Source: a virus | Lineage: Duplodnaviria > Caudoviricetes | IMG/VR virus record: IMGVR_UViG_3300042363_000275 | Span: 10,862-74,861 of that record | DNA: 64,000 nucleotides | Reading direction: 5' to 3' (one strand) | Shown: positions 6,031-53,646 of the stretch, piece by piece | How the letters are laid out: each line of letters starts with the position of its first letter | Numbering within the stretch: position 1 is the stretch's first letter | Translations under genes and position numbers: made by a program | Notes under the pieces: generated by a model | What the model was told of the DNA's origin: nothing | Databases searched by the model: none | Seen by the model: only the letters and a program-made list of their open reading frames with translations

Positions 6031-7065
6031 CTATTGATTTTTATAGATATATTCTACAAATTGGCTCGCCGACTTTTTCCAGTTCTTATCTTTTACGCTC
6101 AGATGAGTTGAGCCGCGATCAACTTCGAGGGCGAAACAAACAGCAGTAGACAAATCTACATCAACGAACCCATTCACACCATTTTGAATTTGATCAATTG
6201 GTCCTGTTACTGGGTAAGCAGCTACTGGTGTTCCGCATGCCATCGCTTCAAGAATCACGATTCCATAAGTGTCTACTCTACTTGGAAATACAAACACATC
6301 TGCGAGTTGATAACATCTTGCCAACTCTTCACCGAATTTATATCCAAGAAATCGAATGTGTGGATATTTCTTTTGCAATTTCTTTCTATATGGTCCATCA
6401 CCGACGATAACTTTAATAACTTCTACCGATGGCGCAACGCAACTAGAAACATCTAATTCACAAAATGCATCTAGATTCTTTTCTTTACTCACACGCCCAG
6501 CGTATAATAGAACAACTCTGTTGTCCTTGTATTTGTCATTGAATCGAAAATGGAAGTCATATCCCTTATCAAGAACAACTGAGTTCCAATTTGAATTTTC
6601 TTTCGCGTTAGATTCAGAGGAACACATCACATACTTTGCGTTCTTATGAAACCAGTTGAAGTACCATTTAGTCCACGAAACTGGAACACCGAACATCTCA
6701 TTAAAGAACTCTGGGAACTTCGTATGGTAAGAAGTCGTATACTGTATTCCAAGTTTCTCAAGAACTCGTTTGGCTTGTAGACCAAGAATGCCTTCCGTGG
6801 CAATGTGGTACTTTGTGTCATATCCTAGCATATGCCAATGCTCATCTCGCGTTTCAATTATTTTAAACATCTTCTTGTAACTGCAAAATGGAAGCGGCAC
6901 TTCTTTATAGAATGGCACTTTGATATTGCTGAATAATCCTGGATGAATAACATCAACTGTTATTTCAGGAGGCAAATTTGCAATAATGTTCTTATAGGTG
7001 GTTACAACACCATTTACTTGCGGTTCCCAAGCATCTGTAATGAGAACTATTTTCGTCCGAGCCAT
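6031..7065 (-). CDS. agt: GT4 glycosyltransferase, Agt-like diacylglycerol glycosyltransferase
   Basis: ITDAWEPQVNGVV, HIATEG.LG, TTSYHTKFPE, GRVSKEKNL and ADVFVFPSRVDTYG...LEAMACGTPVAAYPVTGP. These motifs resemble the Agt family as recalled. The gene overlaps the plcP-like gene. Confidence 0.75.
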   Translation of the reverse strand: MARTKIVLITDAWEPQVNGVVTTYKNIIANLPPEITVDVIHPGLFSNIKVPFYKEVPLPFCSYKKMFKIIETRDEHWHMLGYDTKYHIATEGILGLQAKRVLEKLGIQYTTSYHTKFPEFFNEMFGVPVSWTKWYFNWFHKNAKYVMCSSESNAKENSNWNSVVLDKGYDFHFRFNDKYKDNRVVLLYAGRVSKEKNLDAFCELDVSSCVAPSVEVIKVIVGDGPYRKKLQKKYPHIRFLGYKFGEELARCYQLADVFVFPSRVDTYGIVILEAMACGTPVAAYPVTGPIDQIQNGVNGFVDVDLSTAVCFALEVDRGSTHLSVKDKNWKKSASQFVEYIYKNQ

Positions 7066-7790
7066 TCTATAATCTCCCATGTTCCGTCATAATGTTCAAC
7101 TAATGCTGTGCAGGATTCTACCCAGTCTCCATCGTTCATGTATTCAATGCCGTTGATTGTTTTAATCTCTGCTCTATGAACATGACCGCAGATTACGCCA
7201 TCGGCTTTTTGCTTTTTGCAATAATCTGTAATTAGATCTTCGAAGTTGTTTACATACGAAACCGCTTCTTTCGTTTTGTTCTTAAGATACTGGCTTAAAC
7301 TCCAATGTGGCATGTTAAACCAGTTACGAACTTTACTTACAAGGACATTTAATTTTAACAAAACATTATACAGCATGTCGCCAAGATGGTATAGCCACTG
7401 AAGTTTGGTTCTTAATACACCATCGAATAGATCGCCATGAATCACCATATAGGTTTTGCCATTGACACCCTCATGGCGGCATTGATTCACAAGATCGATG
7501 TTGCCAAAATGAATGTCGAATGGCAATAGATCGCGAAATGCATCGTCGTGATTGCCAACAACATAGGTGACTTTGGTATTGTTCTTTGCGGCTTTGAGAA
7601 TTTTACGAATCACATCAGTGTGTGATTGCAGCCAATAGAATTTTCTTTTTAACCGCCAGCCGTCGATAATATCGCCGACGAGATATAGATTTTCGCTTGA
7701 GTTATTTTTCAAAAAATCGCATAGCAAATCGGCTTTACATCCCCGAGATCCTAGATGGACATCGGAAATAAAGATTGATTTGAATTGCAT
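7047..7790 (-). CDS. plcP: metallophosphoesterase, PlcP-like phospholipase C (often annotated as LpxH-like)
   Basis: ISDVHLG, LVGDIIDGW, GNHD, IHGD.FD, ICGHVH and NDGDWVESCTALVE. GNHD rather than the GNRD of LpxH. Confidence 0.8.
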   Translation of the reverse strand: MQFKSIFISDVHLGSRGCKADLLCDFLKNNSSENLYLVGDIIDGWRLKRKFYWLQSHTDVIRKILKAAKNNTKVTYVVGNHDDAFRDLLPFDIHFGNIDLVNQCRHEGVNGKTYMVIHGDLFDGVLRTKLQWLYHLGDMLYNVLLKLNVLVSKVRNWFNMPHWSLSQYLKNKTKEAVSYVNNFEDLITDYCKKQKADGVICGHVHRAEIKTINGIEYMNDGDWVESCTALVEHYDGTWEIIEWLGRK

Positions 7791-7849
7791 TGGAGACTCC
7801 CAGAACTGGAGTCAGTATATAGCGCAAAAATATTACGATTAGATTAAAA
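7791..7849 (-). promoter_or_regulatory. plcP promoter: -10 box, candidate Pho box, SD-sequestering hairpin
   Basis: TATACT at 7819-7814 with no canonical -35. 11-bp-phased TTTTAAT/TCGTAAT at 7849-7832. Hairpin GACTCC/GGAGTC (7813-7795) covers the SD. Confidence 0.55.
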
Positions 7850-7860
7850 TTCGGTTCATC

Positions 7861-7966
7861 TTCCCCCCACTGCGCAATGGGTGCTAGATTGTACTTTTCT
7901 AGCGGGATCCTATAAAACTCAGCGCCGTGCGCATGACCTCTACACCGAAAGGTTGAGGCGAGTGTT
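7861..7966 (-). ncRNA. candidate structured RNA
   Basis: Non-coding and GC-richer, with several hairpins and closing helices. It lies just downstream of a late-promoter motif. Confidence 0.4.
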
Positions 7967-7968
7967 GT

Positions 7969-7975
7969 TATTTAG
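7969..7975 (-). promoter_or_regulatory. T4-like late promoter core CTAAATA
   Basis: Matches the gp55-type (T/C)TAAATA motif and is intergenic. Confidence 0.55.
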
Positions 7976-7979
7976 TAAA

Positions 7980-8234
7980 TTATCCCATTGAAACTGACTT
8001 GACATTGTTAACTTTAAACGAGCGCCATCCATTTGCGTCTAGATCCCACACAGACACATTATCATTACTAGATTGACGAGCAACGACTGTTCCATTAGTC
8101 TTTGGTGCATTAGGAATATGCTCGCTCAACAATGTACACTTCATGATGCGCTCTTCACCGTTGACCTTTGTGAAGGTCACAGTAACAATATTATTTCTCA
8201 ACAACTCATTTAAATTTTCTTTGTCGAAAATCAT
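7980..8234 (-). CDS. DUF2693/WYL_2-like SH3-fold protein
   Basis: VTFTKVNGEERIMKCTL...VWDLDANGWRSF pattern, conserved in T4-like phages. Confidence 0.7.
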   Translation of the reverse strand: MIFDKENLNELLRNNIVTVTFTKVNGEERIMKCTLLSEHIPNAPKTNGTVVARQSSNDNVSVWDLDANGWRSFKVNNVKSVSMG

Positions 8235-8593
8235 ACTTGCTTCACCAATTGTTTAATTGTATTGTTAGGAAATTGCCAATTTACAAGGATTGCTTTAAAC
8301 ATACTTTTAATTGTCTTTTTAGGTACTGACTTATCCTTGACCATCATACCATTATACCCTGCTTTCGCTTGATTGTCAATAAAAAACTTCACATCACCAA
8401 TATATGCACACAAAATTTCAGCAGAGTTATGATCGTTTTCTTTATAAGTTAGGACATGATACTTGTAGCCCAATTCATCTGGCTCGGTGTATCTGTCTTT
8501 GTATGAGTATACCGTGGAGTCAACATTAGCAAAATTATTTTCTTGTGTGACATGCCATAATGCACCGTCACAAGAGTCGAATTCTACTGCCAT
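8231..8593 (-). CDS. hypothetical protein
   Basis: ORF track, coupled to neighbours. Confidence 0.6.
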   Translation of the reverse strand: MAVEFDSCDGALWHVTQENNFANVDSTVYSYKDRYTEPDELGYKYHVLTYKENDHNSAEILCAYIGDVKFFIDNQAKAGYNGMMVKDKSVPKKTIKSMFKAILVNWQFPNNTIKQLVKQV

Positions 8594-17740: not shown

Positions 17741-17769
17741 ATTATATACTATTTTATTTCGAAAGGCAA
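17741..17769 (-). promoter_or_regulatory. promoter upstream of primase
   Basis: TTGCCT, 17 bp, TATAAT. It shares 17 identical bp with the promoter at 53618-53646. Confidence 0.7.
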
Positions 17770-46424: not shown

Positions 46425-46440
46425 TATTTAGTATATTTAG
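46425..46440 (-). promoter_or_regulatory. tandem late promoter cores CTAAATA
   Basis: Copies at 46425-46431 and 46434-46440. Confidence 0.6.
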
Positions 46441-53617: not shown

Positions 53618-53646
53618 ATTATATACTATTTTATGCGAAAAAGCAA
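53618..53646 (-). promoter_or_regulatory. promoter upstream of uvsX-gp41
   Basis: TTGCTT, 17 bp, TATAAT. Shares ATAAAATAGTATATAAT with the primase promoter. Confidence 0.7.

Follow-up and report, generated by a model that had tools for sequence, protein, structure and literature searches.

A candidate phosphate-responsive translation gate in the plcP leader of a T4-like phage

The 64-kb window analysed here (the whole stretch of DNA presented, lying within the 74.9-kb IMG/VR virus record IMGVR_UViG_3300042363_000275, which is about 45% complete) contains a plcP-like gene whose leader combines a Pho-box-like repeat, a promoter -10 region and a hairpin that pairs the Shine-Dalgarno (SD) sequence. 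We read this leader as a translation gate that would respond to phosphate starvation, in which a PhoB-driven transcription start would remove the 5' arm of the hairpin; we give this full model a probability of about one half. The mechanism that we infer from the arrangement of these elements is a two-input gate on the phospholipid-to-glycolipid remodelling genes plcP and agt. Long transcripts would enter plcP from an early promoter (8379-8351) and from a late-type promoter (7975); since they hold both arms of the hairpin, their SD would be buried and they would be poorly translated. Phased half-sites placed 10 bp upstream of the -10 region would stand in for a -35 element, in the pattern of a PhoB-type regulator of a proteobacterial host. 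In a phosphate-starved host, phosphorylated PhoB (PhoB~P) at this box would recruit sigma-70 RNA polymerase to a start near 7810-7807, within the 5' arm or directly behind it. An RNA this short would be unable to form the hairpin, so that PlcP would be made, and Agt would be made through translational coupling with plcP.

The elements of the leader and the gene that they precede are as follows.

7832..7849, minus strand: Pho-box-like pair of 7-bp direct repeats, TTTTAAT-ctaa-TCGTAAT (7-4-7, 11-bp phase), at the place of a -35 element
7814..7821, minus strand: -10 region TATATACT, readable as TATATA or TATACT (TATACT = 7819-7814), 10 bp after the box
7808..7813, minus strand: 5' arm of the hairpin, GACTCC (anti-SD), filling the gap between the -10 region and the predicted start
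7801..7807, minus strand: loop AGTTCTG; by geometry, the predicted +1 is 7807 (A), or 7810-7808 with TATATA as the hexamer
7795..7800, minus strand: 3' arm of the hairpin, GGAGTC, containing the SD (GGGAG, 7801-7797)
7047..7790, minus strand: plcP-like calcineurin-like metallophosphoesterase, 247 amino acids, Pfam PF00149, ATG at 7790

The motifs and coordinates given in the first-pass annotation, which had proposed a gate of this kind, agree base for base with the minus strand. The half-sites, TTTTAAT (7849-7843) and TCGTAAT (7838-7832), are 11 bp apart from start to start, and the spacer between the box and the -10 region is 10 nt long (atttttgcgc). No -35 hexamer is present, as had been stated: the sequence 17 bp upstream of TATACT, CTAATC, has two matches out of six. 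The SD lies 6 nt before the ATG, with TCCA between the 3' arm and the start codon. The hairpin comprises 6 bp (-9.8 kcal/mol), and the SD is paired with a probability of 0.98, a value that ranks second among 42 crude gene starts in the window (median 0.54). A mini open reading frame (ORF) across the box, encoding MNRILI before its stop codon, was considered and rejected; it is not conserved, and the relative L038 reads ATA in place of its ATG.

To compare the leader with its relatives, viral contigs were scanned for PlcP. The scan confirmed 112 relatives, and 80 loci were kept (54-100% identity), representing 60 distinct upstream regions. Locus L298, which comes from the unpublished genome G089, was set aside, and none of the claims draws on that genome. 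Eighteen distinct leaders make up group A, 16 of which were used in an SD-anchored table of base pairs. All 18 align without a single insertion or deletion from the first half-site to the 5' arm; the 11-bp phase of the half-sites and the 10-bp distance between box and TATATA are constant in all 18. The AA cores of both half-sites and the pattern T-A-x-A-T-A (T41, A42, A44, T45, A46) are invariant, and the 4-nt and 10-nt spacers diverge. Every leader of the group can form a hairpin with the SD in its 3' arm, beginning 0-3 nt after TATATA and with energies between -6.4 and -13.5 kcal/mol. Eight different loops occur, varying in sequence and in length (4-7 nt). The arms differ by lineage, the pairs being GACTCC/GGAGTC, ATGCTCC/GGAGCAT, AGTGCTC/GAGCACT, GGCTTCC/GGGAGTC, AGTGTTCC/GGAGCACT and CTGACTCC/GGAGTCAG. 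In the 16 leaders of the SD-anchored table, the first pair outside GGAG (+1) is A-T in nine, G-C in six and G.T in one; the second (+2) is G-C in eight, T-A in six and A.C in two. Watson-Crick pairs thus fill 91% of the cells at these two outer positions, against 49% when the 3' letters are shuffled (0 of 5000 shuffles). Two alignments, A3 from a covariance model and A4 from MAFFT, were tried for a formal covariation analysis and discarded: with loops of unequal length and stems in different registers, both misplace 3' arms, and the SD-anchored table was used instead. At the level of sequence, the proposal of a gate is borne out by a hairpin kept through compensatory changes, by diverging loops and by a 5' arm that fills the gap between the -10 region and the predicted +1.

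The position of the hairpin relative to the promoter was examined by counting from the first T of TATATA. On this index, the partner of the last G of GGAG falls at 11 in 14 of the 16 leaders; the last base of the 5' arm has index 13-15. The arm takes up the 6-nt gap from the -10 hexamer to the predicted +1. Where a stem is longer, the added pairs reach back into the hexamer and in no case downstream. The register of the -10 is ambiguous (TATATA or TATACT), so that the start is predicted at 7810-7807. In the TATATA register (index 1-6), it would lie at index 12-14 (7810-7808). In the TATACT register (index 3-8), a start 7 nt further on would lie at index 15, the first base of the loop (7807 in the window), where 13 of the 18 listed leaders have a purine, A or G. 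With either register, the RNA is predicted to retain at most two or three anti-SD bases. By this geometry, which is constant across relatives, the +1 would lie in or past the 5' strand.

The hairpin could also be a constitutive attenuator. Transcription would then start further upstream, all plcP mRNAs would contain the hairpin, which would lower or stabilise a potentially harmful phospholipase, and the position of the promoter would be irrelevant. Hairpins that sequester the SD are common (plcP comes only second of 42 in the window), and the late-type promoter at 7975 and the early promoter at 8351 could be the sole real ones. We hold this to be unlikely. It leaves unexplained why the 5' arm lies within 0-3 nt of TATATA, why stems lengthen upstream into the hexamer, why a phased box stands at a fixed 10 bp, and why the whole cassette moves to a second gene (see below).

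In the proposed gate, the repeats would be a binding site for PhoB. Pelagibacteraceae pstS promoters contain three phased repeats (7-4-7-4-7) of YT[G/T]TAAY (YTKTAAY), as in TTGTAAT-aaat-CTTTAAT-aaaa-CTGTAAC, and two Fonsibacter-type pstS promoters (L164, L165) have a -10-like hexamer 10 nt after the second repeat. In Fonsibacter-type genomes, TTTAAC-N5-TGTAAC is found upstream of plcP. An 18-mer matrix was built from 13 non-redundant Pelagibacteraceae pstS promoters only. This matrix places 7849-7832 (minus strand) first among approximately 128,000 window positions, with 12.58 bits. Scores of at least 6 bits occur in 52% of the 60 phage plcP leaders and in 4% of 120-nt segments drawn at random from the loci of these leaders, and the best site nearly always lies 55-63 nt before the ATG. 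Near-perfect or textbook boxes occupy this place in L081 (TTGTAATCAAACTGTAAC, 20.5 bits), in L055 (ATTTAATAAAACTGTAAT, 19.4 bits), a group A leader with the hairpin, and in L031 (TGTCATgataTTGTCAT), L046 (TTGTCACacggTTGTCAT) and L043 (TTGTCATagtaTTGTAAC). Canonical TGTCAT boxes (TGTCAT-N4-TTGTCAT) stand at the equivalent position in relatives. The site has 7-bp repeats at 11-bp phase, half-sites like those of pstS, and a location 10 bp before the -10 where it replaces the -35. The suggestion that the phased half-sites are a Pho box is upheld as far as sequence goes, by their fixed 10 bp from TATATA, by their match to proteobacterial pstS boxes and by the TGTCAT boxes of relatives.

The cultured Pelagibacter phage Mosig (MT647606; L326:2517-2666) provides a further case. 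Its plcP diverges from pstS across a shared 150-bp region, and the best site of the 3.7-kb locus (17.6 bits, a SAR11-type Pho box) lies upstream of plcP and in plcP orientation. A TATAAT is also present in the shared region, with an A/U hairpin directly behind it that adjoins the plcP ATG. In a betaproteobacterial metagenome-assembled genome (L105), four 11-bp-phased half-sites (CGTCAC-N5-CTTCAC-N5-CGACAT-N5-CGTCAT) precede plcP; this array looks like a double Pho box. Among the papers searched, none deals with phage plcP regulation or with SAR11 Pho-box sequences.

As to the host, homologues in alpha- and betaproteobacteria share 49-55% identity with the window's PlcP. In Burkholderiales, pstS promoters combine half-sites of the GTCAT and GTAAT kinds, among them an exact TCGTAAT; half-sites of the GTAAT type thus occur in both Pelagibacteraceae and Burkholderiales, which makes the type proteobacterial without naming the host. 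Two attempts at naming it failed for this kind of reason: GTAAT is common to both groups, and the best PlcP matches (49-55%) are spread over Rhodospirillales, Caulobacterales, Pelagibacterales and Burkholderiales. Homologues and half-sites together point to a proteobacterium, not a cyanobacterium. A cyanobacterial Pho box was likewise considered and rejected. Although PyTTAAPyPy(T/A) describes the first repeat, this is no cyanophage: its modules are plcP-agt and curli-type, and its homologues are alpha- and betaproteobacterial. The Pho-box type that applies here is the proteobacterial one (YTKTAAY / GTAAT), not the cyanobacterial; the first-pass annotation had pointed to host PhoB control of cyanophage pstS.

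The kind of promoter was assessed from other copies of its -10 region. On the gene strand, TATATAAT also occurs at 53625 and 17748, upstream of uvsX and primase, with TTGCTT or TTGCCT 17 bp upstream. The presence of these -35-like hexamers indicates that TATATAAT is here TA followed by a sigma-70 TATAAT. Since the plcP promoter has no -35, the simplest reading is an activator-dependent sigma-70 promoter. The late-type motif in this phage is CTAAATA, which stands ahead of other genes at 46440, 36264 and 19923 and is found at 46431 as well. The uvsX and primase promoters (53618-53640 and 17741-17763, minus strand) share a 15-nt block, AAAATAGTATATAAT, with TTGCTT/TTGCCT 17 bp upstream of TATAAT; they may form a distinct, perhaps middle-like, promoter class.

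A covariance model of the 74-nt leader was used to find further copies. A second match occurs in L012, L016 and G126, just after agt, and reads TTTTAAT-caaa-TCGAAAT, 10 nt, TATATAAG, GACTCC-N9-GGAGTC, ATG. It precedes a gene for an 838-amino-acid phage TonB-dependent receptor with Plug and beta-barrel domains:

L325:131-2719 (= G126:C1:20530-23118; also L012:4737-4811), plus strand for L325: TonB-dependent receptor with the cassette, identified by covariance model and domains

The receptor gene is absent from the window; the window's record and a complete 197-kb relative have one copy of the cassette each. The second copy indicates that the parts of the cassette travel together and that its use is not confined to plcP. 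We tentatively extend the proposal as follows, considering the extension possible rather than probable. Box, TA(T/A)ATA and anti-SD might constitute a portable phage cassette working as a logical AND gate, allowing translation only when host PhoB is active, whatever the temporal programme. It would serve freshwater and marine T4-like phages in at least two envelope functions (plcP-agt and the TonB-dependent receptor), with TA(T/A)ATA doubling as a gp55 late promoter in some lineages.

A number of observations weigh against the proposed gate. In the single sequence of the window, neither the hairpin (z = -1.25, with 23 of 200 shuffles equally good) nor the TATA motif is significant; TATATAMK is seen seven times for 8.5 expected and is not enriched. 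Most of the covariation contrast sets one clade against another and so reflects few independent events. The covariance-model alignment gives weak support, with 75.8% paired versus 71.1% in shuffles, a level reached by 7 of 500; inspection shows that six 3' arms are put in the wrong place in this alignment, so that 75.8% is a lower bound. With respect to the box, a score of 12.6 bits is expected by chance about 1.3 times per 64 kb (Markov-1 null), so that the score by itself is unremarkable and it is the location that is notable. The matrix family was chosen after similar repeats had been noticed upstream of Fonsibacter plcP. For a cyanophage, electrophoretic mobility shift assays did not agree with the Pho boxes predicted in silico (PMC10976474). 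In addition, a structured RNA further upstream, the COG2908 RNA described below, may regulate the long transcripts in other ways. That no single-sequence statistic reaches significance would fit a short hairpin and A/T-rich motifs that lie together by chance and mean nothing for regulation. The comparative data, namely the indel-free conservation, the covariation, the first rank of the box with the matrix and the duplication of the cassette, make such a coincidence very unlikely. The element exceeds chance because relatives conserve it and the independent Pho-box matrix agrees.

The identity of the activator is subject to doubts of the same sort. Compared with the E. coli consensus CTGTCAT, the box matches at only 8 of 14 positions, and one phage clade has GGAAAT or AGAAAT as second half-sites, with low matrix scores. 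The box had been called degenerate at the outset; for the independent pstS matrix, it is the best match in the window. These deviations are what one might expect if gate and activator-dependent promoter were real and the activator were another winged-helix regulator of the OmpR/PhoB family, or else a protein of the phage, and answered to some signal that is not phosphate. Sites of the OmpR family are all A/T-rich direct repeats with a 10-11 bp phase, and the second cassette precedes, and would control, an outer-membrane receptor. However, the closest matches to the box are pstS promoters, relatives carry the textbook TGTCAT-N4-TTGTCAT, bacterial plcP is a Pho-regulon gene (PMC4796936), and Mosig pairs plcP with pstS. 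We judge a different activator to be decidedly unlikely.

The -10 region is also imperfect. With TATATA, position -7 is not a T, and with TATAxx one clade has G or A there, so that neither register offers a good T at this position. TATATA moreover differs by one base from the late-type TAAATA, which L021, alone in group A, has at the -10 place; in many distant relatives, TAAATA stands 10-11 nt behind the box. These features would suit a real gate whose inner promoter is temporal. TATATA would then be a variant of the T4-type late (gp55) promoter, or another promoter specific to the phage, and the repeats would serve something else. We consider this rather unlikely. T4-type late promoters need no upstream element, whereas the box here is fixed in phase and distance and resembles those of pstS; the late promoters of this phage are CTAAATA, and TATATAAT serves the sigma-70-type promoters of uvsX and primase. 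Among the distant plcP phages, L081, L031, L066, L078 and L030 have the T4-late-like TAAATA, not TATATA, at 10-11 nt after the box. In L030, L066 and L078, this TAAATA forms part of a hairpin loop, and the 3' arm of the hairpin adjoins the SD, a placement that also speaks for a temporal promoter; L066 and L078 differ by a compensatory change. In these phages, the TAAATA element may serve both sigma-70 with PhoB and gp55.

The gate proposed for plcP can be set beside known systems. Genes e, soc, 49 and I-TevI of phage T4 are subject to translational control by a promoter within a hairpin (PMC3014915). In their long early transcripts, the SD or AUG is held in a helix; an inner promoter lies at the DNA for the 5' strand, and transcripts from it lack this strand and are translated. 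The freshwater phage studied here is itself T4-like, its upstream-derived RNA is predicted to pair the SD, and upstream promoters are predicted to read into plcP. Unlike here, the inner promoter of T4 is of the gp55 late type (TATAAATA) and the gate is temporal; the -10 region TATATACT does not conform to the gp55 type. With a sigma-70-type -10 and no -35 behind a Pho-box-like site, the gate would be nutritional, a property deduced here from DNA sequence. Host PhoBR control of phage genes has been shown or cited for pstS, phoA and other genes of cyanophages P-SSM2 and S-PM2d (PMC10976474). These too are phosphate-stress auxiliary genes with a host Pho box and are induced in phosphate-starved hosts. 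Boxes (PyTTAAPyPy(T/A)) and hosts are cyanobacterial in those cases, for which an SD-hairpin gate has not been reported; the present phage has a proteobacterial box, plcP-agt genes and a promoter embedded in an inhibitory hairpin. The plcP-agt pair has been described for phosphate-starved bacteria, and bacterial plcP clusters have predicted Pho boxes (PMC4796936). The phage shares with these Pho-regulon operons the gene pair (type 2 arrangement) and the predicted Pho box upstream; in contrast to them, its pair sits in a constitutively transcribed array and adds an anti-SD hairpin and a module of late promoter and structured RNA. What appears to be new is the combination of a T4 e/soc-type gate with host PhoB control, each part being known separately.

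If the proposed gate is correct, a lytic phage would tie an auxiliary metabolic gene to the nutrient state of its host despite a constitutively transcribed array, and would do so by means of a host activator site and a T4-style RNA trick. For phosphate-poor lakes and oceans, the proposal offers a testable model of how the phage-driven remodelling of phospholipids to glycolipids is regulated. The signature of box, 10 nt, TATATA and anti-SD could be used to find other phosphate-gated phage genes.

Upstream of the gate lies a second module, composed as follows.

7969..7975, minus strand: late-promoter-like CTAAATA, directly after the WYL_2 stop codon (TATAAATA in L038)
7917..7963, minus strand: COG2908 RNA (Rfam RF02939), candidate cis-regulatory RNA, full length, 56.9 bits, E = 1e-15
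7866..7906, minus strand: two conserved hairpins between the COG2908 RNA and the box, one of them the palindrome CCCATTGCGCAGTGGG (7881-7866)

The COG2908 RNA motif reportedly comes from the set of Weinberg et al. 2017. The score in the window is 1.8 bits under the gathering threshold (58.7); model positions 1-45 are covered, all stems are kept, and relatives show compensatory changes in the stems. We treat 7963-7917 as a probable member of RF02939 despite the sub-threshold score. The RNA starts 5-7 nt after CTAAATA, and this position directly behind a late-type promoter suggests that it is the 5' end of a late transcript. It lies 127 nt before the plcP ATG, COG2908 being the PlcP family. The match has in common with the Rfam family that it is full-length, stands upstream of a COG2908-family (PlcP) gene and lies on a metagenomic contig; it differs in lying 130 nt upstream of the gate, and outside it, and in starting at a late-type promoter. 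This gives an orphan Rfam RNA a defined setting in phage DNA, behind a late-type promoter motif and beside plcP. A conserved UAGGAUC and the two hairpins follow the RNA. Through compensatory changes, the palindrome at 7881-7866 becomes the perfect palindrome CTCATTGCGCAATGAG in L006, L008 and L012; it could act as a hairpin in the RNA or as a site to which a protein binds.

The module and the gate are separable. In L040 and L033, another gene lies between the COG2908 module and plcP, yet plcP is still preceded by a box, TATATA and hairpin of its own; L197 has the COG2908 motif downstream of plcP. Copies away from plcP are present in L197, L201, L224, L247, L259 and L266, and the RNA may thus be a leader of late transcripts and not a plcP-specific riboswitch. 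A scan of viral contigs for the exact core of the COG2908 motif returned mostly chance 15-mers. The first-pass annotation had taken the RNA that enters plcP for mere read-through; this does not hold, as a late-type promoter and the COG2908 RNA lie 130-185 nt upstream and would be part of the long transcripts.

The neighbourhood of plcP completes the picture. In the window, all genes around plcP are on the minus strand, and the T4-type replication genes for DNA polymerase, UvsX, primase and helicase are present. The following features flank plcP.

6031..7064, minus strand: agt-like GT4 glycosyltransferase (Pfam PF00534/PF13439), probable start at ATG 7064 behind its own GGGAG
7980..8234, minus strand: WYL_2 (Sm-like beta-barrel) gene (Pfam PF10902), by synteny the conserved upstream neighbour of plcP
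8351..8379, minus strand: consensus sigma-70 promoter TTGACA-17-TATAAT, a perfect match and the likely source of an early transcript running into plcP

The metallophosphoesterase fold and the adjoining agt-type glycosyltransferase support the assignment of the gene to plcP, predicted to encode a lipid-remodelling phospholipase C. The agt-like start overlaps the 3' end of plcP, and with its ATG at 7064 behind GGGAG this overlap makes translational coupling possible. No terminator was called in a scan of the interval between the promoter at 8379-8351 and the plcP ATG at 7790. Given the promoters at 8379-8351 and 7975-7969 and no terminator call, long transcripts should enter plcP early as well as late. 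The perfect promoter at 8379-8351 sits inside a listed 120-amino-acid ORF (8593-8231), which is therefore probably shorter or split.

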